Below are positions 1 through 28,530 of a stretch of 64,000 nt of DNA, in pieces. Made by a program: the position numbers and the translations under genes. The notes under the pieces are model-generated. The model did no database searches, was not told the DNA's origin, and saw only the letters and a program-made list of their open reading frames with translations. The stretch lies in assembly GCA_014435945.1 (NCBI GenBank), contig GCA_014435945.1_4088.1; one strand, given 5' to 3'. The DNA comes from a phage. Numbering within the stretch: position 1 is the stretch's first letter; every line of letters begins with the position of its first letter.

Positions 1-80
1 AAAAAAAAACAATTTGACTTAAGTTAAATCTTCCTATAATATTATTTATGTAATCAACAATCAACTAAGAGGGTTAACCA

Positions 81-689
81 GTGGTACGATTATGTAAAGA
101 AATCATCCAATCTATTATTATTATTTTCTTAATTAACTTTCCTGCAAGTGCAGGTGTTGAAAGAAAAAGTATCATTAGATATGATGAATCTAAACAGACA
201 GTTCAGTTCATTTCAACTTTAACTGAAAATTCTGTAAACCGTTTGATGGTTTTTAGAGAAACACACCCATTTGACACTATCATCATTACGTCACCGGGTG
301 GTGATTTTGATGCGGGAGTGGCACTAGGAAATTTTGTCAATGATAACAATTTAACAATTATTGTTGAAAGATATTGTAATTCTTCTTGCACTATCGCATT
401 CTTTAGTGCTAATATAGAAAACAGATACATGATGAAGGACTCAATTCTAGGTCTACATAATGTGTCAATCGAAAGTAAAGCACGAAATAGTGATGACACA
501 TACATAACAGTTCGCCAAATGACTATTTTTGCTGAACAGCTATCAACTAAGGTTGGTGTTCTATTTGCGTTATATGCAGCGAATGGTATTCCTCCAGAAT
601 TGTTAGTGGAGGTTAGTAAGGTTCGTGGTAATGAAGTTGTGAGACTTACACCAGATCAGTTGCTCGAATTAGGTAGTATCATTCATTAG
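81..689 (+). CDS. secreted ClpP/crotonase-fold protease-like protein
   Basis: GTG start 8 nt after AAGAGGG; hydrophobic N-terminal signal-like segment; TSPGGDFD motif reminiscent of ClpP-family peptidases. Confidence 0.35.
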   Translation: MVRLCKEIIQSIIIIFLINFPASAGVERKSIIRYDESKQTVQFISTLTENSVNRLMVFRETHPFDTIIITSPGGDFDAGVALGNFVNDNNLTIIVERYCNSSCTIAFFSANIENRYMMKDSILGLHNVSIESKARNSDDTYITVRQMTIFAEQLSTKVGVLFALYAANGIPPELLVEVSKVRGNEVVRLTPDQLLELGSIIH

Positions 690-781
690 TATTAGATACA
701 AAATAATAATATTATAATAAGAGGATGATAAAGTGGTACATCCTTTGTTATAAGTTCACATACACTAGGAGTGTATAAACT

Positions 782-1042
782 ATGACAAATTTACAAAACT
801 TAACATCTCTTGTTTTTTATGCAACAACTATTGTATATTGCATTACATTAGTTTTAACATGTTTCATCTATAAAGACTACAAACGTGGTTTTATGGATTC
901 CAGTACACACAAATTTGCATCCAAGTTCGAAGCAGGAATTTACTATGTTCTATCAATTTCTTATGGAGCATGTTTACTTACACTAGGGTTGCTGATATAC
1001 TGGTTGTATACGGCACTTTTTGCACAAGGAGTTATTTCATGA
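782..1042 (+). CDS. small membrane protein (hypothetical)
   Basis: ATG ORF with two long hydrophobic segments. Confidence 0.4.
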   Translation: MTNLQNLTSLVFYATTIVYCITLVLTCFIYKDYKRGFMDSSTHKFASKFEAGIYYVLSISYGACLLTLGLLIYWLYTALFAQGVIS

Positions 1043-1632
1043 CTTGTATTATCGCTCACACAAATGGCACATCTTCCTTCATCGCTGGTGATAAATTAGG
1101 AAGCAATGGTTTCACTAAAGCAGTTCAAACTGAGCCTAAAGTGTTTGAGAAAGAGTTCATTAAACTCAATGAGGATGGTCTTACTCGCACTAAAGAAGTA
1201 ATGGCGTTAGGGTATACTACATCGTTCCGCATGGGTCAGTTGTTGAATTACAACCTAACTCTACCAGAACAAGTTGCAGGGGAAACCTTTTCACAGTATC
1301 TAGTACTGAAAGTTATTCCTATCATTCGTCAAATGTTTAAAGATGAATGGGGTGCTCGTGATGCATCACAAGATGTTGGTGGTGGTCAGTTCATTATTCT
1401 TCATAATCATACGATTTATGAAGTTCAAGAAGACTTTTCAGTACTGCAACCTAAAACACAAATTACTGCTGTCGGAAGTGGGACTTATCATGCAATTGCA
1501 TCCATGTCAGCGTATATTGAAGTTCAAGAAGAAACCAATGTTCAGTTACATGAACGTGTTGAGTCTATTTTCAAAATTGTTAGTGATAATGTAACAAGTG
1601 TTAGTCCAGAGTTTGATATTTTGAAATACTGA
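1039..1632 (+). CDS. HslV/proteasome-beta-like Ntn-hydrolase peptidase
   Basis: ATG 8 nt after AAGGAG; N-terminus MTCIIAHTNG..FIAGD parallels HslV MTTIVSVRRNG..VIAGD (Thr at position 2); internal AVGSG motif. Confidence 0.45.
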   Translation: MTCIIAHTNGTSSFIAGDKLGSNGFTKAVQTEPKVFEKEFIKLNEDGLTRTKEVMALGYTTSFRMGQLLNYNLTLPEQVAGETFSQYLVLKVIPIIRQMFKDEWGARDASQDVGGGQFIILHNHTIYEVQEDFSVLQPKTQITAVGSGTYHAIASMSAYIEVQEETNVQLHERVESIFKIVSDNVTSVSPEFDILKY

Positions 1633-1663
1633 GAATAATAATTATAAAGAGAGAGTGTATCTG

Positions 1664-1855
1664 ATGGCATACATAATTTACGAGTGGATTTTTTGTTTCA
1701 TAGTTGTGTTTATTTGTGTGGTGTTATACAATCACACTAAATGTTTATACCGAGAATTCAGGAATGGTAATAAACATGGACACAATAAGTGGATGTATGT
1801 CTATCATATTGCTATCATTGTATTTTTAGTATTAAACTTGATACTTTTTATATAA
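1664..1855 (+). CDS. small membrane protein (hypothetical)
   Basis: ATG after AAAGAGAGAG; hydrophobic helices; ORF track gave GTG at 1655. Confidence 0.35.
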   Translation: MAYIIYEWIFCFIVVFICVVLYNHTKCLYREFRNGNKHGHNKWMYVYHIAIIVFLVLNLILFI

Positions 1856-1864
1856 GGAGTAAAT

Positions 1865-2617
1865 GTGATATCAGATAAATTTATACAAAATGCTGGGAAC
1901 AAAAGATTACTTATAATTTCAGGGGCAGGTCTTTCAGTTGAGAGCGGGATGGAACCATTCCGCTTTGATGATGGGTTGTGGGACAATTTCAAAATTAATG
2001 ATGTTTGTAACATTGCACGACTTAGTTCTAAGTATCATGTAGTTCATTCATTTTATAATACATTGCGTGTAAAATTAGGTGAATGTCATCCTAATGAAAT
2101 GCATTACTTTATTAAATCATTAGAAGATTTGTATGGTGATTGTTTTTTACACATGACTTCTAATATGGATGATCTATATACTAGAATTGGTGGAACCGAA
2201 CTCAAACTACACGGAAATTTATGTGAAGTAATTGAGAACTTTTCTATTAATACTGATGATTACAATGTCATTAATTGTGGTTATGAACCATATATTCCTA
2301 AAGCTGATGTTTTTGCAAAACCAAATGTAGTGATGATTGGTGAGTATCATCGCTACGTTGATGGGGTACGTCTCCCCATTTATGAAGAACGAAATGAAGT
2401 GTTGAAAAGTCTCACAGAAAATGATACAGTTGTAGTTATTGGAAGTAGTGATACAGTACTGGTATGGTCCAGACTAGCTGGTGCACTTCCATGCTATAGT
2501 GTAAATGTTAACATCCGAAAAAATGATAATGATTTTCTTTTTAATGAGAAGGTCATCAAACCTGCGACGAAAGCAATTCCACAGGTTGAAACTATAATTA
2601 AGGAACGAATGCGATGA
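1865..2617 (+). CDS. Sir2-family NAD-dependent deacylase/ADP-ribosyltransferase-like protein
   Basis: Sirtuin motifs GAGLSVESG, HPNEMH, NMDDL..LHG, VVMIGE, VIGSSDTV; GTG start 6 nt after AAGGAG. Confidence 0.7.
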   Translation: MISDKFIQNAGNKRLLIISGAGLSVESGMEPFRFDDGLWDNFKINDVCNIARLSSKYHVVHSFYNTLRVKLGECHPNEMHYFIKSLEDLYGDCFLHMTSNMDDLYTRIGGTELKLHGNLCEVIENFSINTDDYNVINCGYEPYIPKADVFAKPNVVMIGEYHRYVDGVRLPIYEERNEVLKSLTENDTVVVIGSSDTVLVWSRLAGALPCYSVNVNIRKNDNDFLFNEKVIKPATKAIPQVETIIKERMR

Positions 2618-3165
2618 GTAAAGCGGAAGTACCACTGGGGCAAATGGGGAAACGTGCAAATTTTGTATTCTGTTTCTTTTATGCAAAAGAATGTACCCCA
2701 TACGCTGGTTATGAACTAAATGATATCCCAGTGGTTAACTTAGTACTCCTACAAGTGCGTTGGGATGGATTGTTGGGTGCATGTGGTGGAACAGTTGAAA
2801 GTACTGATAAGTCATTAGAAGATGCGTTACAGCGTGAAGTTCAAGAAGAAATGAACTATATCATTGACAAAAGTCGCCTGTCTCCATTAAAATCACTTGA
2901 ATTGTTTCCAGAGGGTCACTCACATAGCTATAGTTATGAAATGACTTATGCTGAACTTAAAAAACTTCGTGATAATTATGCATATGGCAAACATGCTAGT
3001 GCAGAGGTGGCTGGTGTAAATTTATGTCACATCTCTCGTTATTCGAAGGGACAAAATCGAGAAGCAGGATATAATAATCTTATGACACAGAACTTCATCG
3101 GAACTGCGAAACAAGAATTAGAGTATCTTGTACAAAAAGAAAACTTACTAATCAGCTATCTATAG
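2614..3165 (+). CDS. Nudix hydrolase
   Basis: Nudix box GGTVESTDKSLEDALQREVQEEMNY (one-residue insertion relative to consensus); start overlaps upstream stop (ATGA). Confidence 0.6.
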   Translation: MSKAEVPLGQMGKRANFVFCFFYAKECTPYAGYELNDIPVVNLVLLQVRWDGLLGACGGTVESTDKSLEDALQREVQEEMNYIIDKSRLSPLKSLELFPEGHSHSYSYEMTYAELKKLRDNYAYGKHASAEVAGVNLCHISRYSKGQNREAGYNNLMTQNFIGTAKQELEYLVQKENLLISYL

Positions 3166-3174
3166 GAGTTTAAA

Positions 3175-3495
3175 ATGTCGTACTCAATGTTCTTGGATGA
3201 TATTCGTGATTATCAAAAATATTATCCTGACCAAGAGATGGTATTGTGTCGTGACTACGAAAGTGCATGTGAATACGTAATCAAAAATGGAATTCCAGCA
3301 TTTGTCTCATTTGACCATGACTTGGGTGACTTGAGTACAGATGAGAAAACGGGATACACTTTTGCCAAATTTCTAATTGATTATATGTTTGAGCATAATA
3401 TTAAAGAACCATTTAAATACTATGTACATAGTAGTAATCCAGTAGGGAAAGTTAATATTGAAACTTACTTAACTAATGGATTTAATGCACTATGA
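3175..3495 (+). CDS. hypothetical protein (possible receiver-like fold)
   Basis: ATG after GGAG; LDDIRD ... FDHDLG pattern loosely reminiscent of a receiver domain; no firm assignment. Confidence 0.45.
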   Translation: MSYSMFLDDIRDYQKYYPDQEMVLCRDYESACEYVIKNGIPAFVSFDHDLGDLSTDEKTGYTFAKFLIDYMFEHNIKEPFKYYVHSSNPVGKVNIETYLTNGFNAL

Positions 3496-3794
3496 TTTCA
3501 ACACATATCAAGAGTCTTATTTGCACAACACTGTTAGGTATAGGTGTTCTATGGTTCAGTTCATATCATGAGAACACTAAACGTTACAATATTCATTACA
3601 ATACAGCGACTGTAACAGGATTAGGTCAATGTAATGAAAATAAATGCTCATTTACTTATAAAACCAGTACTGGTGAAGTTCGTAATGGGTTATCAAGAGA
3701 TCCAGTATCAATTGGTCAACTAGTTTACCAGGAATGCTGGGAGGAAAAGGCTCGTGGTTCAAGATGTTATGTTGAATACGAACCGAGCATGTAA
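3492..3794 (+). CDS. hypothetical protein with N-terminal hydrophobic segment
   Basis: Start overlaps upstream stop; N-terminal TM/signal-like stretch; several Cys. Confidence 0.45.
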   Translation: MISTHIKSLICTTLLGIGVLWFSSYHENTKRYNIHYNTATVTGLGQCNENKCSFTYKTSTGEVRNGLSRDPVSIGQLVYQECWEEKARGSRCYVEYEPSM

Positions 3795-3855
3795 TATTCC
3801 GAGTCACTAACCATTAGTCGAGTACAAGGATGTACTCATAACTCAAGGATGTTTT

Positions 3856-5295
3856 ATGAAAAAATATACAATTGACACAAACGTACTACTATCTGATCCA
3901 AATGCTACCATTGCTTTTGATGGAGCAGCTATCATTCTACCGTTCACAGTACTTGAAGAATTGGATTCAATCAAAAGTCGTAATGTGGATGTTTCCCGTG
4001 ATGCTCGTGTTGCAATCCGTAACATTGAAGCTATCCTTTCTGATGCATCACATGAAGAAATTAGTAGTACTGGTGTTAATATTGCTGATGTTCATACTAA
4101 TATGAGTCCTGAAAGCAAATTGTTTGTTATTACAAGCGAAGAAGCTGAAGCACTAATTCGTACTGCTGGTAACGAAGAGAAAGTTCAAACTCTTCTAAAA
4201 AGCACAGTACCAGATGATAAAATCATTTTAGTAGCATTAGCAACTGATTCAGTACTGGTTACCCGTGATATCAATATGCGTATCAAGGCTCTAAGCTACG
4301 GGGTGGAAGTTCAAGATTACCGTCATGATATCGTGATTGGTGATAGTGATTTGATTCACATTGGTCAACATCACCTTGACCTACATTTCTGGGATGTGTA
4401 TAGTAATCTGACTGATGTATCTATTCAGTCTGAACAAGTTGGTCGTCGTTTGTACCACTACATTCCAAAAAGCTTGATTGAACATATCATGCCACAAAAT
4501 ATTTGCATCGGTGATTACCTATATGATAATGCTGATGTTCTATTTGTGTACGAAGGTCAATCTGCAATTGAAGAAGATGATGGTACTTTAACACCAGAAG
4601 ATATTCTTGTATTCCAAGATATTGGACAATCCGTTGCTCTACGTGCTAAAGTGTGGGATATTAAGGCTAAGAATATTCAACAAGCACTAGCAATCAACAG
4701 TATCCTAGATCCTGATGTTCATCTAACAGTACTGTTAGGTTCAGCAGGTACTGGTAAAACACTAATCACCATTGCAACTGCACTAGAGTTAGTTCTAGAG
4801 AAGAAAAAATACGACCGTATCATCTTCTCCAAAACACAAGATTCCCAATTCGAAGACATTGGTTTCTTGCCTGGTTCTGAAGCAGAGAAAGTGATTCCTT
4901 TCTGTGGTGCGGCAATCGATGCGTTGGAATTCCTACACAAAGATGATGCTAACCCACAAGGCAGTATCGAAGAAATCATGAAACGCAATGTTATCCAATT
5001 CAAAGCACTAAACTTCGTTCGTGGTCGTTCTTTCACAAATACTATCCTAGTAGTTGATGAATTCCAGAACATCACACCTGCTCAGGCAAAAACAATCTTG
5101 ACTCGTGCAGGGATGAACTGTAAAGTGGTTATTATGGGCAACTTGAGCCAGATTGACTCTAAATTCATTAGTCCAGTAAACAGCGGCCTAACTTATGTTA
5201 CCGAGAAGTTCAAGAACTGGGACGGCTGTCGTGTAATCGAACTAGAAGGTGTCGTTCGTTCACCACTAGCAGAATTTGCAGAAGAAAATATGTAA
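3856..5295 (+). CDS. phoH: PhoH-like ATPase with N-terminal PIN domain
   Basis: N-terminal PIN-like IDTNVLL; C-terminal Walker A LLGSAGTGKT and Walker B ILVVDEFQN typical of PhoH. Confidence 0.85.
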   Translation: MKKYTIDTNVLLSDPNATIAFDGAAIILPFTVLEELDSIKSRNVDVSRDARVAIRNIEAILSDASHEEISSTGVNIADVHTNMSPESKLFVITSEEAEALIRTAGNEEKVQTLLKSTVPDDKIILVALATDSVLVTRDINMRIKALSYGVEVQDYRHDIVIGDSDLIHIGQHHLDLHFWDVYSNLTDVSIQSEQVGRRLYHYIPKSLIEHIMPQNICIGDYLYDNADVLFVYEGQSAIEEDDGTLTPEDILVFQDIGQSVALRAKVWDIKAKNIQQALAINSILDPDVHLTVLLGSAGTGKTLITIATALELVLEKKKYDRIIFSKTQDSQFEDIGFLPGSEAEKVIPFCGAAIDALEFLHKDDANPQGSIEEIMKRNVIQFKALNFVRGRSFTNTILVVDEFQNITPAQAKTILTRAGMNCKVVIMGNLSQIDSKFISPVNSGLTYVTEKFKNWDGCRVIELEGVVRSPLAEFAEENM

Positions 5296-5361
5296 TAATG
5301 TGTGGGACATTCGTCCCATACATGATATAATAATATTGTTAACAACAAAGGAGAAATACTC

Positions 5362-5559
5362 ATGGCAAAGCAACCTAAGAAAAAAGAACCAGTAGCAAAA
5401 GTTAAGAAAGTTAAAGTTATTCAATCTAAAGAACAACGTAATTACGAACTACGTAAAGCAGAAACCCTATCAGGTCTTCAAGCTCTACGTAAACAAGGTG
5501 TTCTAACTCGTGCTCAATACCGTGAGATAGTAGCACAAAAAGGTTATTGGTCCATTTGA
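5362..5559 (+). CDS. small basic protein (hypothetical)
   Basis: ATG after AAAGGAG; Lys/Arg-rich 65-aa ORF followed by a terminator. Confidence 0.45.
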   Translation: MAKQPKKKEPVAKVKKVKVIQSKEQRNYELRKAETLSGLQALRKQGVLTRAQYREIVAQKGYWSI

Positions 5560-5653
5560 AGCAATAAACTGGAGTTCATGATAAATACTTTCATAAGAAT
5601 AATAATACTTTTTATTAATTTAAAAAGAACTCCATGTGTTATTTCAGTTTTTC

Positions 5654-5681
5654 ATCCCTGTCTTTTGGCAGGGATTTTTTC
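5654..5681 (+). terminator. intrinsic terminator
   Basis: ATCCCTG-tcttttgg-CAGGGAT hairpin followed by TTTTTT. Confidence 0.7.
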
Positions 5682-5775
5682 TTTCTAGATATTGACAAAA
5701 GGATTAAACCATGAGAACATGTAGTAAAGGAAGAATGACATTCCATTAGGTTAGTTTAACTTAAAGGAGAAATAT

Positions 5776-6333
5776 ATGTTTTTTGACCAAACATTTACGT
5801 TGTACCATGATTCAGGTAAAGTTGAGATTATTGATAATCTGTTAGAGTACATTGCGGAACATGACGGTATAGACCGTTTCCACAGTAAGATGAAATTCGA
5901 TTTAGCTGAATTCAACAAAAAGAATCGTGAAACATTTTGGAAGAACCGTTTCTATTACGAAATGTATCCAGAAAAGTTCGTAGGTTATTATCTTTGTACT
6001 GAAAAAGGATTACTTGTATCTCCTGATTTACTTATGGGTGAATACATGATACTCTATAATGAGTACTGGGAACATAAGCGTAATGCTCGTGACACTGAAT
6101 GGCGACACAAGCGTTCGTATATGTACAAACATAACCACTCCAGATACAAACGTCCTAAGACCCAACAAGAGCGTCGTATGGCTTGTGCAGTACTGAAGGA
6201 TGAGGGGGAACCTGAAATACGTGGAAGACGTAAGATGCGTTCATTGCCATCGTATTGGGATGATATCAGAACAAGACACAGTACTGGCTGGAAATACAGT
6301 ACAAAACGTAAACATCAATACAAAGGGAGCTAA
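5776..6333 (+). CDS. hypothetical protein
   Basis: ATG after AAAGGAG; 185-aa ORF with basic C-terminus. Confidence 0.5.
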   Translation: MFFDQTFTLYHDSGKVEIIDNLLEYIAEHDGIDRFHSKMKFDLAEFNKKNRETFWKNRFYYEMYPEKFVGYYLCTEKGLLVSPDLLMGEYMILYNEYWEHKRNARDTEWRHKRSYMYKHNHSRYKRPKTQQERRMACAVLKDEGEPEIRGRRKMRSLPSYWDDIRTRHSTGWKYSTKRKHQYKGS

Positions 6334-6360
6334 TGCTCCCTAATTTTATAGGTGAACTTT

Positions 6361-6690
6361 ATGAACAAAATTGACGTTACTGTAGTGATTGGTTATATTG
6401 AAATTGAACCGTGTGGCATTGATACCTTTATTGACACTCTTAATAAGTATCGTGCTGAATATGACGGTCACATTAGTCTTTCACCAGACAGTGGTTACGG
6501 CGGTTTTCATGGATACAATGTAATTTGGACCAGAGAAGAAACTGACGAAGAATATAATACACGAATTGAAGCTGAATCTAAAAGACGTGAAGAAATTGAA
6601 CGTCAAGAAATGAAACACTTAATGAACAAGAAATCATTAAGTACCGAAGAGAAATCTAAACTTTTAAAATACATCAAGGATTACATGTAA
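6361..6690 (+). CDS. hypothetical protein
   Basis: ATG chosen in frame with the ORF-track GTG at 6352; charged C-terminal helix. Confidence 0.45.
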   Translation: MNKIDVTVVIGYIEIEPCGIDTFIDTLNKYRAEYDGHISLSPDSGYGGFHGYNVIWTREETDEEYNTRIEAESKRREEIERQEMKHLMNKKSLSTEEKSKLLKYIKDYM

Positions 6691-7337
6691 TGAAAAATGT
6701 ATCACAAGAAAAGATTCTGTACCTTGCAAAGTACAATGGTGGATTTAATATTACCAGTTGTGAATATCATGGTAACATGGCTAAAATGATTGACGAGCTA
6801 CTAGAAGGTAAAATGCTCCGTTGGGAGACAAATGACCTTTGGTACGAATATGCGGGTCAACAATGGGAAAGTGACTACGATAATGCAATTCATACGTATA
6901 CAATTACTAAAAGTGGTGAAGTACGTTTGGCTATCATGCGTTGTGCTTACACTTACAAAAATTTCAAAGATGAAGAAAAGCATATTCGCCGAAATGAAGA
7001 GTTAGTACACCTAATGGGTGAAGCTGGCATTACAATGCATGACTTGTTCAATGATCCAAGATGGACTGGAAAACTGTCCAAAGCAGAATACAAAGCATTA
7101 CGATACATCCAAGAACCAGAAATCAACAAACCTAAAGAATGTATTGATGATGGTGAACTAAGCCTCAAAAATGTATTTGAAAGTACCAGTACTGAAAGTA
7201 TTACAGACATTTCTGTACAGATGGCACTAAAAGCAATGGAACTTTTCAAGACACAATATGAAGGACACAGTGCTGAAGAAGTAGAGCGTGAGTTCATTAC
7301 GCGAGTACAAATTGCATTACATAAATCAAAAAAGTAG
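6690..7337 (+). CDS. hypothetical protein
   Basis: ATG overlapping upstream stop; 215-aa ORF. Confidence 0.5.
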   Translation: MKNVSQEKILYLAKYNGGFNITSCEYHGNMAKMIDELLEGKMLRWETNDLWYEYAGQQWESDYDNAIHTYTITKSGEVRLAIMRCAYTYKNFKDEEKHIRRNEELVHLMGEAGITMHDLFNDPRWTGKLSKAEYKALRYIQEPEINKPKECIDDGELSLKNVFESTSTESITDISVQMALKAMELFKTQYEGHSAEEVEREFITRVQIALHKSKK

Positions 7338-7343
7338 GTTCAT

Positions 7344-7523
7344 ATGAAAATTTTACTTGTACTAATCGCCGTTCTTATGGTATTATCTTGTTCAGTTAGT
7401 AATGGTTCATACATTTACGTATCAGTATTTGAAGAAGCACCAACGAACTGTGTATTAACTCACACTGGTATTGTGTTAGTTAATGGTAAACCATCAATCG
7501 AGTACTTATGTATAGGTGATTAA
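7344..7523 (+). CDS. small putative lipoprotein
   Basis: 59-aa ORF (below ORF-track cutoff); signal peptide with lipobox-like VLSC. Confidence 0.35.
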   Translation: MKILLVLIAVLMVLSCSVSNGSYIYVSVFEEAPTNCVLTHTGIVLVNGKPSIEYLCIGD

Positions 7524-7526
7524 ATT

Positions 7527-7760
7527 ATGAAATTTATTTCTATTGCAATTGTTTCAGCACTCATGATGTTAGTAACAGGCTGTGCACCTAAAGTTCAGGA
7601 GGCTGATGCAGAGTTCATTCGCCAGAATTTGACTAAACTTAACTACGATGGCACATTGTATGCTTGCCATGAGATGCGTCATGGGCAAGATCTTAATCTC
7701 ATGTGCAGGAAGATTGTGAATCGCAAACGTCTTAATACTGTTCCGAAGGATGCACAATGA
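7527..7760 (+). CDS. small putative lipoprotein
   Basis: Signal peptide with lipobox LVTGC. Confidence 0.45.
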   Translation: MKFISIAIVSALMMLVTGCAPKVQEADAEFIRQNLTKLNYDGTLYACHEMRHGQDLNLMCRKIVNRKRLNTVPKDAQ

Positions 7761-7927
7761 AAGAAGTAATTGGTTACAAATGTAAAAATTGTGGCAAAGA
7801 TAAGGGTAAGCATTCAGTACAAGGGATGGCTTGTCCAAATCCAGGACGTGGTAATTTCAGAGGGTTCAGTACTGAAAAGTCTTACGAACCGGATCATACC
7901 AAACCTGTAATGGGTTATAAATTATGA
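7757..7927 (+). CDS. small zinc-ribbon-like protein (hypothetical)
   Basis: 56-aa ORF, start overlapping upstream stop; CKNCG ... CPNPG cysteine pairs. Confidence 0.3.
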   Translation: MKEVIGYKCKNCGKDKGKHSVQGMACPNPGRGNFRGFSTEKSYEPDHTKPVMGYKL

Positions 7928-8283
7928 GTGATTATGTGGCATTTCTTCATCGCTTTGGTGAAGCTCAAGAAAAACACATTATCCGTATGCCAGCTTATGG
8001 TGAAGAAGACTGGTACAAAAGTACTATCAGTGTAGGTGCATTTCGTGACCGTGAAGCTGAATTCTTTCTGGGTAAGCAACATGAACGAGAGGTACTTTGC
8101 TCACTTTGGCGTTTAGATGAATGGGATAGTGAAAATTCCAGAACGGCTGAATCAATGATGGCTATTGTTGGTATTGCGAACTATCAGCACCCATATGATC
8201 TATTACCTACATTTGAACATGCTTCTTTGTTTGACTTTTACAAAGCAGTAGGGTATGATTATAAAAAGAAACGTTACATTTAA
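7924..8283 (+). CDS. hypothetical protein
   Basis: ATG overlapping upstream stop; 119-aa ORF. Confidence 0.5.
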   Translation: MSDYVAFLHRFGEAQEKHIIRMPAYGEEDWYKSTISVGAFRDREAEFFLGKQHEREVLCSLWRLDEWDSENSRTAESMMAIVGIANYQHPYDLLPTFEHASLFDFYKAVGYDYKKKRYI

Positions 8284-8328
8284 TATCAGTACTGTTATAG
8301 TGGCAGTACTTTTTAATTGGAGATTACT

Positions 8329-8943
8329 ATGACTACATCTGAAAAGTACTGGTGGATTTTGGGCCATCCTAAATTCATCAACGGAGATATGGTTCCCCCA
8401 AGGATTGATATCGAACCACATGATGTGTGTCCAATCACAAACCGCATTGAATCATTTAAAGCTCTGAATACAAAGACACAATTTTGGGTAGAATTCATCT
8501 CACCTATGTACGTTGAGCAAGATGATGAATGGGTACAAGCACATGATTATGAGTTAGATTGCGGTGGTGATACTTATGATGAGGCAATTGATGAACTATA
8601 CAAAAATGTGCTAAACACTTATGGTGATTACACCCAACAAGAAGCAGACGATACGTTTAATAAGATCCATGCAGTCATTTCTACATCATCAATTTACAAT
8701 ACAGCAAAAACAGTTTGGGAAGAACGTCACGGGTGGAGTTCATCTGTAATTGATGCAGAAGCCAAAGAAACAATTCTCGAAGACATAAAAAATATAAAAA
8801 GTACAATAGAAGCCTTGCGTGAATTTATAAAGTCTTGTACAATAGAACAACAGAAAGAGGCAAAGATGCATTTGGAGAGTGAAGAATGTAAACTTTGGGT
8901 TCTAGAGAAATCATTTGAAAAGGGTATAGACTTAGACTTATGA
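8329..8943 (+). CDS. hypothetical protein
   Basis: ATG 6 nt after GGAG (ORF track gave TTG at 8317). Confidence 0.5.
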   Translation: MTTSEKYWWILGHPKFINGDMVPPRIDIEPHDVCPITNRIESFKALNTKTQFWVEFISPMYVEQDDEWVQAHDYELDCGGDTYDEAIDELYKNVLNTYGDYTQQEADDTFNKIHAVISTSSIYNTAKTVWEERHGWSSSVIDAEAKETILEDIKNIKSTIEALREFIKSCTIEQQKEAKMHLESEECKLWVLEKSFEKGIDLDL

Positions 8944-9308
8944 ATCGTAAACTTGAGAAACTAATTGAAGAATTACGACGGATGCCACCCATCGAGCAAG
9001 TGGGGAGCTACAAACGTTATCGTGTGATTGCTCGTGCACTAGATAAGAAAGGTCGTGTATTGGCAACACGTACTAATTCTTACACACATACTCACCCAGT
9101 ACAGAAAGGTTTTGCAATCCGTGCTGGGCGTCCACAAGGTGAATTTCTTCATGCTGAAATCTCATGTTTGCTGGCTTCTCGTGCTGAAGTTCATACTTTG
9201 TTGATTGCACGGGTAAGTAAAGATGGTATTCCAGTCCCTGCCAAGCCTTGTGAGATTTGTACGTTGGCAATTCTGGAATATGGGGTCAAAGAAATTATTC
9301 ATACATGA
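8940..9308 (+). CDS. CMP/dCMP-type zinc deaminase-fold protein
   Basis: Zinc-binding motifs HAE (LHAEISC) and PCxxC (PCEICTLAI). Confidence 0.55.
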   Translation: MNRKLEKLIEELRRMPPIEQVGSYKRYRVIARALDKKGRVLATRTNSYTHTHPVQKGFAIRAGRPQGEFLHAEISCLLASRAEVHTLLIARVSKDGIPVPAKPCEICTLAILEYGVKEIIHT

Positions 9309-9526
9309 AGAAAATCGAACGCTACCAAAACCATACAGTTGTGACTGAAGATGATATATTTTATTATTATATTTTCAGACCCACACACTGTTTACAAATA
9401 ACGACATATGAGAATGGTAAATTCAAAGATGTCAACTTCCATATAACAGATTTAGCAAAATATTCCAGTACTGAATACTTTAGTAATTTAGTGTTTGTGT
9501 ACTGTATACCACATCATAACATTTAA
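9305..9526 (+). CDS. hypothetical protein
   Basis: In-frame ATG overlapping upstream stop; 73 aa. Confidence 0.35.
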   Translation: MKKIERYQNHTVVTEDDIFYYYIFRPTHCLQITTYENGKFKDVNFHITDLAKYSSTEYFSNLVFVYCIPHHNI

Positions 9527-9536
9527 GGAGTCAACT

Positions 9537-9896
9537 GTGGCTAAAACTATTTCTTTAAAAAATGAAAATGTAGGACAACGCAAAGATGGGTTCTTTGGAT
9601 TCTCATGGACAACATTGTTCTTTGGTCCGTTCCCTGCATTGTTTCGTGGTGACTTTATTACGTTCATCGGTGCATTTGTAATTTACTTCATCCTCAACGC
9701 AGTGTCTTTTTGGATTGTGGGTACAATTGCAATGGTCGTGTGGGCATTTCTTTATAATAAGTACTACACTGTGAATCTCATCAAGAATGGGTATAAATTC
9801 AATGGTACACATGAAGAAAATGCTGAAGCTGCAATGGCGTTACAAATTGATCTAAACAAAAACAATACTGTAGATAAAAACAAAGAACCAGAATAA
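9537..9896 (+). CDS. DUF2628-like membrane protein
   Basis: GTG 7 nt after AAGGAG; FGFSWTTLFFGPFPALFRGDF motif and two TM helices, as recalled for DUF2628. Confidence 0.45.
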   Translation: MAKTISLKNENVGQRKDGFFGFSWTTLFFGPFPALFRGDFITFIGAFVIYFILNAVSFWIVGTIAMVVWAFLYNKYYTVNLIKNGYKFNGTHEENAEAAMALQIDLNKNNTVDKNKEPE

Positions 9897-10115
9897 ATGG
9901 ATCAGTATGAGATAACTTACGATTATTATGGTAAGGCTTATATGAAGTGTGGTCGTTTTGTTGAACTATCAAATAGAGAAGCAATCGACCCACAAACCAT
10001 TATATCCATCCATAACTCGTACTATAAAAAAATTACCATAGCTAATTTTGCAACATACGTAGATAATCCTATATTTCCGTATATCATTCATTTCTATTGT
10101 AGAGCTATAAAATAA
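9897..10115 (+). CDS. hypothetical protein
   Basis: 72-aa ORF immediately after upstream stop. Confidence 0.35.
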   Translation: MDQYEITYDYYGKAYMKCGRFVELSNREAIDPQTIISIHNSYYKKITIANFATYVDNPIFPYIIHFYCRAIK

Positions 10116-27219: not shown

Positions 27220-27573
27220 ATGAGTGATTACCGCGTAACATCTGGACTAATGGCCCGTCTTATTGAAGCAGTTCCTGAAGATGATTATGAAGCTATTTCA
27301 GATCGTCTTTTTGACGCAGATTCTAAACTCCATATTACATATGATGGTGCATTGATTTTCAGTACTGATATTGATATGTCTAGTTATGAATTTGAGATTT
27401 CTTTTGGTAACAAACTAACTACTGAAGAATTCGCTCAAAAATGTGAGCGTGAAGGGTTGTGTATTGATATTAGTTCAGTTCAGCCATATACATCACTGTG
27501 GTATGATGGTGCTGATAGTCCAATGTCTACTACATCTTTACAGGATTTTCTAAATGCAAATCAAAAAGATTAA
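27220..27573 (+). CDS. hypothetical protein
   Basis: ATG 7 nt after GGAG; the ORF-track GTG at 27190 lies inside the terminator hairpin. Confidence 0.5.
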   Translation: MSDYRVTSGLMARLIEAVPEDDYEAISDRLFDADSKLHITYDGALIFSTDIDMSSYEFEISFGNKLTTEEFAQKCEREGLCIDISSVQPYTSLWYDGADSPMSTTSLQDFLNANQKD

Positions 27574-27946
27574 ATTCCACCAGCATTGTTCTATACATGA
27601 ATGTGATGATTGTGGTATGAACATGAGTGACATTTATACAGTTTCCTGTAAAGGATTCAAATTCACTCACGGTGAACCTGCATATTGTTATGGCACAGAA
27701 GAAGGTGATATCGAAGTAGTACTGAAAGAATTGTTCCAGTACTTGCAAAGTGCAGGTCATGATGTTACAATGCCCACATATTACGAAGATGATTATGACT
27801 CACATGTAGAAGAAAATACATATTATAATCAATTCGTTCATGGTAATGGCTTTATCACATACCTTCATGAGAATGGTATTGAGGTAAAAACTAAGTACAC
27901 TAGTGATGATTACGAAAGTGATGACTCTATGGAGATTGAAGATTGA
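27554..27946 (+). CDS. hypothetical Cys-rich protein
   Basis: 130-aa ORF; CxxxxCxxC cluster near N-terminus; acidic C-terminus. Confidence 0.45.
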   Translation: MQIKKIKFHQHCSIHECDDCGMNMSDIYTVSCKGFKFTHGEPAYCYGTEEGDIEVVLKELFQYLQSAGHDVTMPTYYEDDYDSHVEENTYYNQFVHGNGFITYLHENGIEVKTKYTSDDYESDDSMEIED

Positions 27947-28530
27947 AAGCAAAAGACCTAGCAGCACTGTTGATGCAGAACCCTGAAATGGAAGTGTATC
28001 ATGAGCACATGCATATTGATGATATGTGTGAATCGTACTATTCACCAGAAAATGTGTCTGGGATTGAAATCACACCAAGTGGTGTATTCATCAGTACTGA
28101 ACGTATTGATTACAATTCCCAGCAAGAAATCAAAACTCCACATAATAAACCTCGCATTGGTGCTATTGACCTAGTATTTCATCAGGACCGTTTGGTGGAA
28201 TATGATGAAGACGATGGTACTACCCGAACTGATGTTGAGAATGTTGTTTTTCCTTTTTATAACGCCTATGATGACCCAACAACAGGTGAAGATTTCTTCC
28301 GTGAGTTATCAGAGGATGGTTATGTTTATGGTGAAAATGGAACTATTTTTGTACTGGACCCTAATTATGAGCCAGATCACAACACTTGGCAATTCTATAC
28401 ACCTCAAGATGTAATGGAAGTTAAAGTACTTACAGATCTTGACGATAATTGGAACCCAGTATATACTTCAATGACATTTGAAGAAGCAAAAAACCATTTC
28501 GTTTCTAAACTAAACATTACAAAAGAATAA
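27943..28530 (+). CDS. hypothetical protein
   Basis: TTG start 8 nt after GGAG (in-frame ATG 30 nt downstream possible); acidic. Confidence 0.45.
   Translation: MKAKDLAALLMQNPEMEVYHEHMHIDDMCESYYSPENVSGIEITPSGVFISTERIDYNSQQEIKTPHNKPRIGAIDLVFHQDRLVEYDEDDGTTRTDVENVVFPFYNAYDDPTTGEDFFRELSEDGYVYGENGTIFVLDPNYEPDHNTWQFYTPQDVMEVKVLTDLDDNWNPVYTSMTFEEAKNHFVSKLNITKE

Follow-up and report, generated by a model that had tools for sequence, protein, structure and literature searches.

Neighbouring genes for a predicted exported ClpP-fold peptidase and an HslV/BPH-like threonine peptidase in an Asteriusvirus jumbo phage

Two protease-like open reading frames at the left edge of a 64,000-nucleotide stretch of phage DNA (GenBank assembly GCA_014435945.1, contig GCA_014435945.1_4088.1; the whole stretch is referred to here as the window) are probably separate, non-structural phage peptidase genes whose syntenic proximity is confined to Asteriusvirus. 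ORF1 (81..689, plus strand, GTG start) encodes a 202-aa predicted exported ClpP-fold serine peptidase, and ORF2 (1039..1632, plus strand) a 197-aa propeptide-less HslV/BPH-like N-terminal-threonine peptidase. In the mechanism proposed for them, a Sec-type signal would direct the ORF1 product to the periplasm, where, released or N-terminally anchored, it would act independently of an ATPase as a ClpP-fold serine peptidase via Ser101 and His126. The ORF2 product would be cytoplasmic, with host methionine aminopeptidase exposing Thr1; this residue, together with Asp17, Lys33 and a Gly oxyanion hole, would cleave peptide bonds in the manner of HslV, BPH and the proteasome beta subunits, most likely within a ring-shaped homo-oligomer. 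The oligomeric state of the two proteins, their proteolytic activity and their substrates are what we infer from the findings set out below.

The window is from an Asteriusvirus, that is, a PBECO4/121Q-like E. coli jumbo phage; it is 99.7% identical to vB_Ec-M-J and 96.8% identical to the close relative TH47, which has a 352-kb genome. A preliminary description of the region, made from the sequence alone, had reported two protease-like genes in tandem directly upstream of Sir2/Nudix. Both genes are present at the positions reported and on the plus strand, and they do lie in the same neighbourhood, but they are not strictly adjacent: the description had overlooked an 86-aa ORF (782..1042, plus strand, from the ORF list) that intervenes and whose stop overlaps the ORF2 start (ATGA). 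This ORF is an annotated CDS in vB_Ec-M-J, is kept across the PBECO4 clade (65% identity to the PBECO4 orthologue), and from its two hydrophobic segments (residues 7-30 and 53-82) is predicted to be a membrane-protein gene; searches of Pfam, PHROG, NCBIfam and PADLOC gave no family match for it. ORF1 and this gene evolve much faster than the surrounding genes. An unannotated 63-aa ORF, also with two hydrophobic segments (residues 1-29 and 42-63), lies between ORF2 and Sir2 (1664..1855, plus strand) and was matched by tblastn in three PBECO4-clade loci (52% over 48 aa, E 7e-15). The Sir2 and Nudix genes themselves are real by Pfam and PHROG matches and open a downstream block (1865..5295, plus strand) of Sir2, a Nudt16-like Nudix protein, cREC_REC, a 100-aa protein and PIN-PhoH, of which Sir2, Nudix, cREC_REC and PIN-PhoH accompany ORF2 in PBECO4, in 121Q-like phages and in the more distant jumbo contigs L009-L011. 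A scan of the locus for promoters and terminators stayed at background level, with the sole terminator-like site inside ORF1.

ORF1 is preceded by a ribosome-binding site (AGAGGG) 7 nt upstream of the GTG and belongs to phrog_26024 (E 3.7e-70). Its match to Pfam CLP_protease is marginal (E 4.4e-4; 20.6 bits, the gathering score being 20.2), it scores 18-21 bits against NCBIfam ClpP models with cut-offs of 228-251, and neither Pfam nor NCBIfam holds a model describing its exported ClpP-fold family. The ClpP-like fold suggested earlier was upheld by profile and structure searches, and the AF2 model shows a ClpP fold that begins at about residue 31 and includes the handle helix. Conservation was read from a family alignment of 20 members (A3) and from the 135 best remote relatives. 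The TSPGGD motif noticed in the preliminary description (aa 70-75; 288..305, plus strand) aligns with ClpP 'INSPGG' and corresponds to the 'NSPGG' oxyanion-loop region; its S71, G73 and G74 are invariant in A3 and present in 133-134 of the 135. Ser101, the predicted nucleophile, is placed by HMM alignment opposite the catalytic Ser of ClpP ('AASMG') and stands between two invariant cysteines in C99-N-S101-S-C103 (375..389, plus strand). A3 shows no variation at C99, S101 or C103, which are kept in 130-133 of the 135, and the two cysteines are the only ones in the mature domain. The predicted general base is His126 of H126-N127 (456..461, plus strand), aligned to the catalytic His of ClpP ('MIH'), invariant in A3 and a His in 123/135 of the best remote relatives. 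Of the expected Ser/His/Asp triad, then, the Ser and His are retained and the Asp is not conserved: the position equivalent to ClpP Asp171, around E185, is D, E, N, K or S across the family, so that catalysis would require a Ser/His dyad or another third residue. About 1500 cluster representatives match the family with the hallmarks SxGG, CxSxC and His, and by sequence ORF1 is predicted to be one of many exported ClpP-like proteins that form a large and still uncharacterised group.

The signal-like N-terminus described earlier was likewise borne out. ORF1 begins MVRLCKEIIQSIIIIFLINFPASA, followed by GVE, and direct reading of these residues gives a predicted Sec signal peptide of aa 1-24 (81..152, plus strand), with R3 and K6 in the n-region, a hydrophobic core, P21, and A22-S23-A24 ahead of G25 as an AxA-type site. 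A Kyte-Doolittle scan marks residues 1-26 as a hydrophobic segment, and the AF2 model places a helix at 2-19 and a disordered linker at 21-27. 'LINFPASAG' is nearly invariant among Asteriusvirus ORF1 orthologues, an N-terminal hydrophobic segment occurs in 20/20 family members, and many remote relatives have lipobox-like N-termini. Export of ORF1 is thus a prediction from its N-terminal sequence. A disulphide within CxSxC was also considered as evidence of export, but this argument is weakened by the cytoplasmic ClpP-like protein of contig L005, which has the same motif ('DCGSMC').

Comparison with characterised serine peptidases places the protein more precisely. Features of ClpP (MEROPS S14) seen again in ORF1 are the Ser, positioned where a strand meets a helix, the His, the SPGG loop and a long 'handle' helix. 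ORF1 differs from ClpP in its CxSxC motif, in the lack of conservation at the Asp171-equivalent and at the N-terminus, where ClpP has axial loops and helix A and ORF1 has a signal sequence in their place. The axial loops are the docking point of the unfoldase, ClpX or ClpA, and ORF1 is without them; its predicted periplasmic location is also without an AAA+ partner or ATP. Besides ORF1 the phage has a canonical ClpP (231 aa, E 8e-46), encoded some 3.6 kb upstream of where the window begins. SppA (S49) and the NfeD/1510-N membrane proteases use a Ser-Lys dyad, whereas the ORF1 family has a ClpP-type His and no invariant or near-invariant Lys; as modelled, ORF1 is structurally nearer ClpP proper than either of these. 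If the prediction holds, the ClpP fold would be found in a new setting, working in the periplasm without ATP.

Several GenBank records would instead make ORF1 a phage head-maturation (prohead) protease, 'Head maturation protease' being its product name in vB_Ec-M-J, WPEC5 and fEgEco12. Some similarity lies in this direction: ORF1 weakly matches the ClpP-related prohead protease model NF045542 (E 0.012), and its RaK2 homologue weakly matches phrog_94 and phrog_1684 (prohead protease). However, ORF1 bears an N-terminal signal sequence and is located among early and auxiliary genes outside the head module, and a prohead core protease of the T4 gp21 type is already known from the genus (gp227c); its gene lies in the head module beside those for the scaffold and the major capsid protein, and the protein was detected in virions. 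The ORF1 orthologue of phage phAPEC6, gp346c, was not detected in virions of that phage; it and gp345c, the relative of ORF2, are both absent from the 62-protein virion proteome (PMC7247149). A prohead role is accordingly very improbable, and, given this non-detection, the automated pipelines that label ORF1 a 'head maturation protease' in several genomes are probably in error.

For ORF2, the longest open frame runs 970-1632, and the true start is the ATG at 1039, with AAGGAG 8 nt upstream; in 65 of 87 relatives the ORF opens directly with MT. Among the PHROGs its match is phrog_1040 ('peptidase HslV family', E 2.6e-22), and this, like the ORF1 match to phrog_26024, lies far outside what chance would give. 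The N-terminus MTCIIAHTNG...IAGD with Thr at position 2, and the internal GSG, both pointed out in the preliminary description, were upheld with this start, the GSG falling at aa 146-148. Methionine aminopeptidase removes Met before Thr, and from this specificity Met1 of ORF2 would be removed and Thr1 exposed. Residue conservation was evaluated over 80 distinct relatives, the counts referring to sequences having a residue at the column. Thr2 (mature Thr1; 1042..1044, plus strand), the predicted nucleophile, is aligned to HslV Thr1 and is Thr in 78/78; Asp18 (mature Asp17; 1090..1092, plus strand) is in register with the HslV 'IAGD' and is Asp in 78/78; Lys34 (mature Lys33; 1138..1140, plus strand), aligned to HslV Lys33, is Lys in 79/79; and Gly58 (1210..1212, plus strand), equivalent to the oxyanion-hole Gly45 of HslV and Gly47 of the proteasome and aligned to HslV G45, is Gly in 79/79. 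A check of the catalytic residues thus finds Thr1, Asp17, Lys33 and the oxyanion Gly all kept. G146-S147-G148 (1474..1482, plus strand) aligns with 'IGSGG' of HslV and corresponds to G123-S124-G125; both glycines occur in 80/80 relatives, with Ser between them in 22 and Cys in 55. The beta-hairpin that follows Lys33 is extended by some 18 inserted residues (aa 38-55; 1150..1203, plus strand), which have no counterpart in the HslV alignment and are modelled as part of strands 35-43 and 50-59. This insertion is specific to the enterobacterial jumbo-phage clade apart from one further sequence, P0066; the other, shorter relatives of alignment A1 are without it.

The HslV/proteasome-beta-type fold expected for ORF2 was confirmed by both profile and structure searches. 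The AF2 monomer (pLDDT 92.4) is an alpha-beta-beta-alpha sandwich with two helix pairs (H1-H4), and Foldseek matched it with probability 1.00 to HslV, BPH and proteasome beta subunits, HslV giving the best E-values (9e-10) and BPH the top TM-scores (0.71-0.80). Its profile found HslV in the PDB at 7.9e-8 and BPH only weakly (E 0.003-0.004), and hhalign against E. coli HslV gave a probability of 94.8% (E 5.5e-8). Family models register the protein poorly: no Pfam model, Proteasome included, matched at E<=1, and the NCBIfam HslV models scored it far below their cut-offs (NF003964, 19.1 against 137 bits; TIGR03692, 18.1 against 157.75). HslV (ClpQ, MEROPS T1B) and ORF2 are alike in having Thr1, Asp17, Lys33, Gly45 and GSG in register, in lacking a propeptide beyond Met1, and in size (176 and 197 aa). 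Identity between the two is only 15-20%. ORF2 also differs by carrying Cys where HslV has Thr at position 2, by its 18-aa hairpin insertion and by a longer, acidic loop following helix 2, and no HslU is encoded beside it. BPH (PDB 5ovs, 5ovt, 5ovu; PMC5777263) resembles ORF2 in the top TM-scores, in standing alone with no known unfoldase, and in a longer acidic pore loop (PMC8665760) comparable to the post-helix-2 loop of ORF2; BPH, however, is bacterial and forms heptameric double rings, whereas ORF2 is phage-borne and was modelled as a monomer. Phage-associated proteasome homologues, PPH, AAH and CPH, were described in 2021 by Fuchs, Alva and Lupas, and share with ORF2 the group I (HslV/BPH-like) type, a compact, propeptide-less form and occurrence in tailed phages (PMC8665760). 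PPH is of about 140 aa and without helix 2 (PMC8665760), and ORF2, with 197 aa and both helix pairs, is therefore not PPH.

The suggestion that an HslU partner might be encoded elsewhere in the phage was not sustained, no HslU ORF being found in the window or in the 352-kb TH47 genome; the sole AAA+ match in TH47 is a 770-aa ClpA homologue, encoded along with a 231-aa ClpP. ORF2 could then be a phage surrogate for HslV, seated on the host HslU hexamer or on the phage ClpA homologue and giving ATP-dependent breakdown of chosen host proteins. HslU is indeed encoded by the host E. coli and not by the phage, and the phage ClpA homologue bears an IGM loop. Four residues of E. coli HslV, F54, F57, K80 and Q114, are reported to line or touch the pocket for the HslU C-tail (PMC6429459), and three of these four are identical or similar in ORF2 (F54 to F63, K80 to R93, and Q114 to Q137, the last within a 'V-x-Q-P' stretch common to both proteins). 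The fourth, F57, aligns with Gly, and at about 16-20% identity the HslV-ORF2 alignment makes the mapping of the pocket uncertain. Also against the surrogate are the higher TM-scores of the unfoldase-independent BPH, the post-helix-2 loop of ORF2 (aa 105-117, low pLDDT), which in its length and acidity resembles the BPH pore loop (PMC8665760) and not the short loop of HslV, and the hairpin insertion of the ORF2 clade, which HslV does not have. Dependence of ORF2 on an unfoldase in this manner consequently appears unlikely. Improbable to a greater degree is that ORF2 is a non-protease Ntn enzyme, either a connectase-like ligase/transpeptidase or a small-molecule amidase, possibly tied to the neighbouring genes of nucleotide and NAD metabolism. 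The proteasome-like folds do include the ligase connectase (PMC8665760), to which ORF2 has a weak phmmer match; the Cys beside Thr1 is nearly invariant in ORF2 relatives, as compared with the Thr-Thr of HslV; and most neighbours of ORF2-type genes in other phages encode enzymes acting on nucleotides or alarmones (HD_4, Thg1, dCMP deaminase, RNR, thymidylate synthase). Yet the connectase match has an E of about 0.9, ORF2 has both helix pairs and is without the helical insertion of connectase, and its top sequence and fold matches, HslV and BPH, are both peptidases. A threonine peptidase thus remains the preferred reading of ORF2.

The distribution of the two genes argues for their separateness. 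Relatives of ORF2 were found in 341 IMG/VR viral contigs and 198 cultured phage records, T5-like phages included, and with phage proteasome homologues described since 2021 (PMC8665760), a phage HslV-like gene is not in itself unusual. Relatives of ORF1 occur in 48 phage records, 46 of them Escherichia, Klebsiella or Salmonella phages with one Xanthomonas and one Erwinia phage; among the matches listed, all are RaK2/PBECO4-like jumbo phages bar one 47-kb Klebsiella record. After ORF1, RaK2-like phages have NMNAT and Nampt instead of ORF2, and in L009-L011 ORF2 is present with no ORF1 within 8 kb. No constant partner of the HslV-like gene emerged when ORFs within 4 kb were clustered at 86 loci and the immediate upstream ORFs inspected. 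The commonest neighbour families were HD_4 (12), PhoH (10), Thg1-like (10), NAD-ligase (10) and dCMP deaminase (8), and other upstream genes were methylases, terminase ends, HNH and a tail gene. A small upstream membrane protein was likewise rejected as a general partner: only 6/31 small upstream ORFs had a hydrophobic segment, and the arrangement was confined to the enterobacterial jumbo clade and one T5-like phage. A ClpP-like gene paired with an HslV-like gene was not conserved either, being found only in contigs L003 and L005 and in Asteriusvirus.

These patterns bear on the proposal, made in the preliminary description, that ORF1 and ORF2 make up one proteolytic host-takeover or anti-defence module working with Sir2/Nudix. 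The 86-aa protein might or might not be part of such a module. These genes lie close together on one strand, the 86-aa ORF overlaps the start of ORF2, and no convincing terminator separates ORF1 from ORF2; with this arrangement, and with the 86-aa gene and ORF2 coupled in translation, they could be expressed together. A ClpP-like gene lies directly upstream of an HslV-like gene in the two unrelated contigs L003 and L005, and given these the linkage may be recurrent, but the ClpP-like proteins concerned lack a signal peptide and fall in another PHROG than ORF1. Related phages place NAD-salvage genes and Acb1 between the ORF1 homologue and Sir2 (RaK2-like phages) or Gad2 and Apyc1 near HslV-like genes (L005 and L006), and by such neighbouring counter-defence genes an anti-defence role is only hinted at. 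Against a single module stand the independent phyletic patterns of ORF1 and ORF2, their different predicted compartments, the absence of any neighbour conserved across the 86 loci, the lack of PADLOC matches for either protein and the lack of support in the literature searched. The proteolytic module is consequently regarded as improbable, and two separate peptidase genes brought together in Asteriusvirus are preferred.

Phage HslV-like proteins are common, occurring in T5-like, Vibrio, Aeromonas and jumbo phages, and no substrate, partner or phenotype is known for any of them; literature searches turned up no function for the phage HslV-like or proteasome homologues and no Asteriusvirus transcriptomics. 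The present locus is a clean test case, with catalytic residues intact, no HslU in the phage, HslU in the host and a ClpA homologue in the phage. A more far-reaching picture, speculative and with little probability attached to it, is that ORF1 is a phage-delivered periplasmic peptidase that remodels the host envelope, by cutting receptors, lipoproteins or lysis regulators for instance, and that ORF2 is a 'mini-proteasome' recruiting host HslU or phage ClpA against host defence proteins, the two forming a two-compartment takeover toolkit in a counter-defence island. Envelope remodelling of this kind, if true, would explain the fast evolution of ORF1 and of the 86-aa membrane protein.

Over positions 4-6000 the window is 99.7% identical to Escherichia phage vB_Ec-M-J and 96.8-99.4% identical to seven further phages of the same subclade, with about 82% identity to the PBECO4 subclade, whose DNA match begins at 702, directly past ORF1. 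Both subclades, and the window with them, fall in Asteriusvirus, a genus of jumbo myophages of E. coli (350-385 kb). ORF1 (81-689, plus strand; 202 amino acids) has a GTG start and a good ribosome-binding site. ORF2 (1039-1632, plus strand) encodes 197 amino acids from MTCIIAH; its longest listed ORF is 970-1632, but the true start is the ATG at 1039, which has AAGGAG upstream. The two genes that the preliminary description placed in tandem are indeed present, but an 86-residue ORF with two hydrophobic segments (782-1042, plus strand), unmentioned there, lies between them. Because its stop overlaps the ORF2 start (ATGA, 1039-1042), translational coupling of the two is suggested. Small membrane ORFs also precede the HslV-like gene in the jumbo contigs L009 and L010 and in the T5-like phage L104, though not generally. 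A further ORF of 63 residues with two hydrophobic segments (1664-1855, plus strand) follows ORF2; the records of vB_Ec-M-J, PBECO4 and phAPEC6 carry no annotation for it, its product is kept in the PBECO4 clade (52% identity over 48 residues, E 7e-15), and it is probably a real gene for a small membrane protein. Next comes a conserved plus-strand block (1865-5295) encoding, in order, Sir2, a Nudt16-like Nudix protein, cREC_REC (a cyclic-phosphate-processing receiver domain), a 100-residue protein and PIN-PhoH, which resembles a set for NAD/ADP-ribose or RNA-end processing.

ORF2 is predicted to be a proteasome-like enzyme with an N-terminal threonine nucleophile. Pfam gives no match, but phrog_1040 ('peptidase HslV family') is hit at 2.6e-22, and a profile of its 35-sequence family finds HslV structures (7.9e-8) and, more weakly, actinobacterial proteasome beta subunits and the Betaproteobacteria proteasome homologue, BPH. 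Alignment with E. coli HslV by hhalign (94.8% probability) places Thr2 on HslV Thr1. The AlphaFold model is of high confidence (pLDDT 92.4, pTM 0.88), with both sheets and both helix pairs where such a fold should have them; in a Foldseek search HslV was the top match by E-value (9e-10) and BPH gave the top TM-scores (0.71-0.80). Thr1, Asp17, Lys33 and the oxyanion Gly are 100% conserved wherever the column is occupied among 80 distinct family sequences, as are both glycines of the GSG motif, the middle residue of which is Ser in ORF2 and Cys in 55 of the 80. The HslV-like character, N-terminal threonine and GSG motif noticed earlier are borne out, with the predicted catalytic threonine both conserved and in register. 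Since 65 of 87 ORFs of relatives begin directly with Met-Thr, the protein lacks a propeptide. Directly after the nucleophile, 74 of 78 relatives carry Cys (alignment A1 of the ORF2 family; loci L003-L087), where HslV and proteasome subunits have Thr.

ORF2 is nevertheless not an HslV orthologue: it reaches 18-19 bits where the NCBIfam models for HslV demand 137-158. As to a possible use of host HslU, PMC6429459 names four pocket residues of E. coli HslV; in an alignment of 15-20% identity, three of them map to identical or similar residues of ORF2 and one to Gly. In the enterobacterial jumbo-phage clade an insertion of about 18 residues lengthens the hairpin after Lys33 relative to shorter relatives and HslV, and an acidic loop, of low confidence in the model, follows helix 2; Fuchs et al. 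(PMC8665760) link a long acidic loop at this place to BPH, which works without an unfoldase, and a short loop to HslV, which is gated by HslU. The search for an HslU partner elsewhere in the genome was made in TH47 (MT446416.1), a relative with an assembled genome of 352 kb that is 96.8% identical over the window's first 6 kb, using E. coli HslU, ClpX, Lon and ClpP as queries. HslU was not found in that genome; the sole AAA+ match is a full-length ClpA homologue of 770 residues (289535-291847, minus strand; TIGR02639, 5.7e-226) with IGM in a 'KRSIGMSG' loop. TH47 also encodes a canonical ClpP of 231 residues (27276-27971, minus strand) with the ClpP-like motifs AASMG, CHQ and DADRD, which occupies 2448-3143 in locus L001. 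Both genes fall outside the window, ClpP about 3.6 kb upstream and ClpA about 14 kb beyond its right end, and the two proteins could possibly form a phage-encoded ClpAP protease. ORF2 would shed Met1 and serve as a cytoplasmic Thr1 peptidase, probably as a ring oligomer, and may act constitutively on peptides and unfolded chains in the fashion of BPH or through a borrowed hexameric unfoldase.

ORF1 is best described as a putative exported, ATPase-independent relative of ClpP, a reading drawn from its ClpP-type Ser and His, its signal-like N-terminus and the missing axial loops and first helix. It matches Pfam CLP_protease marginally (20.6 bits, threshold 20.2) and phrog_26024, 'protease', strongly (3.7e-70). 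Checked against the ClpP Ser/His/Asp triad, the invariant Ser101 and His126 align with the nucleophile and the His in the HMM alignment, but the column of ClpP Asp171 is variable within the family. The two missing elements are those by which ClpP docks its ATPase and is gated. The signal-like N-terminus consists of basic residues, a hydrophobic core, Pro and then Ala-Ser-Ala ahead of Gly25; 'LINFPASAG' is nearly invariant in Asteriusvirus orthologues, and a comparable hydrophobic N-terminus occurs in 20 of 20 family members. An exhaustive profile search (E<=1e-3) returned about 1500 cluster representatives, the best 135 of which keep SxGG, CxSxC and the His. CxSxC, around the nucleophile (ORF1 residues 99-103, window 375-389, plus strand; remote relatives P0097-P0231), is nearly universal in this ClpP-like superfamily of predicted export. 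At least 83 of 124 remote relatives have a hydrophobic N-terminal segment, lipobox-like in some of those inspected, and no model in Pfam or NCBIfam covers this family. A cytoplasmic ClpP-like phage protein, that of locus L005, has CxSxC as well, so the motif may or may not form a disulphide. In the likeliest mechanism ORF1 would act in the periplasm as a Ser101/His126 peptidase with no ATPase.

Several GenBank records name ORF1 a head-maturation protease, which it probably is not. In phAPEC6, of the same genus, the part of prohead protease falls to gp227c, a T4 gp21-like protein that is present in virions and whose gene adjoins those for the scaffold and major capsid proteins, and neither gp346c (ORF1) nor gp345c (ORF2) is among the 62 virion proteins, which include the flanking gp347 and the PIN-PhoH orthologue gp341c (PMC7247149). 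ORF1 and the 86-residue ORF, both predicted to be envelope-directed, are the fastest-evolving genes in the compared stretch: between the window and PBECO4 their products are 52% and 65% identical, as against 88% for ORF2, 90% for Sir2, 95% for PIN-PhoH and 96% for the upstream ClpP, and their neighbours are 78-99% identical between Asteriusvirus subclades. The catalytic motifs of ORF1 are invariant despite this divergence, which would be consistent with contacts to variable parts of the host surface and equally with relaxed constraint.

The preliminary description raised the possibility that the two genes form a proteolytic module, and their distributions speak against it. ORF2 relatives occur on 341 IMG/VR contigs and in 198 cultured-phage records, including many T5-like Epseptimavirus (amid nucleotide-metabolism genes), Aeromonas, Vibrio and other phages. 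ORF1 relatives occur on only 2 IMG/VR contigs and in 48 phage records, all from Escherichia, Klebsiella or Salmonella phages save one Xanthomonas and one Erwinia; among the matches listed, all are RaK2/PBECO4-like jumbo phages except one 47-kb Klebsiella record. In RaK2-like genomes the ORF1 homologue holds the syntenic place, preceded by dCMP deaminase and a virion gene of Ig-like type. Between it and Sir2 (L100-L102, about 5600-10000) stand NMN adenylyltransferase/Nudix, Nampt (NAD salvage) and Acb1, and neither an HslV-like gene nor an 86-residue-type membrane ORF. Conversely, no ORF1 lies within 8 kb in the jumbo contigs L009-L011, which keep ORF2, Sir2, Nudix, cREC_REC and PIN-PhoH. Across 86 loci the genes directly upstream of the HslV-like gene are heterogeneous, and the top neighbour families (HD_4 hydrolase, PhoH, Thg1-like, NAD-ligase, dCMP deaminase) reach only 8-12 loci. 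L003 and L005 do have a ClpP-like gene immediately ahead of the HslV-like one, but its product lacks a signal sequence and belongs to phrog_1827. Because the relatives are distributed separately and the neighbours are inconstant, the tandem appears to be an accident of synteny at the level of the genus, in a region where auxiliary genes vary.

In L100-L102 the stretch from the ORF1 homologue to Sir2 is a variable island rich in genes of counter-defence type. Relatives often have counter-defence genes in this region: Acb1 and NAD salvage in the island, and, close to HslV-like genes, Gad2 in L005 and Apyc1 in L006. An anti-defence role for the proteases is weakly suggested by this guilt by association. 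The Acb1 homologue is anti-CBASS, and the Gad2 homologue (L005, 6861-7448) is found one gene downstream of the HslV-like gene there. In L006 (1304-4608) an Apyc1 (anti-Pycsar) homologue and a 604-residue FtsH-like protease lie within 4.5 kb upstream of another HslV-like gene.

The kind of protein to which ORF2 belongs is already known, phage proteasome homologues having been catalogued bioinformatically (PMC8665760) and HslV-like genes without HslU remarked in other jumbo phages (PMC7823757), and some records already give ORF1 and ORF2 protease-type names. The finding is real and moderately ordinary, with ORF1 an uncharacterised ClpP-fold variant of predicted export. Direct observation covers the folds, the conserved residues, the distributions, the lack of HslU in the phage and the absence of both proteins from the phAPEC6 virion proteome, while export, processing, oligomeric state, activity and substrates are inferred. 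Two other arrangements of HslV-like genes were seen. At 12 loci (L023, L032 and 10 others) a gene for HD_4, a RelA/SpoT-type hydrolase of about 210 residues, lies directly upstream, and in those inspected, such as L023 and L032, its stop overlaps the start of the HslV-like gene; an alarmone hydrolase may here be paired with a peptidase. In L085 (7441-8552) two HslV-like genes of 186 and 183 residues abut in tandem, suggesting a possible hetero-oligomeric phage proteasome-like particle.
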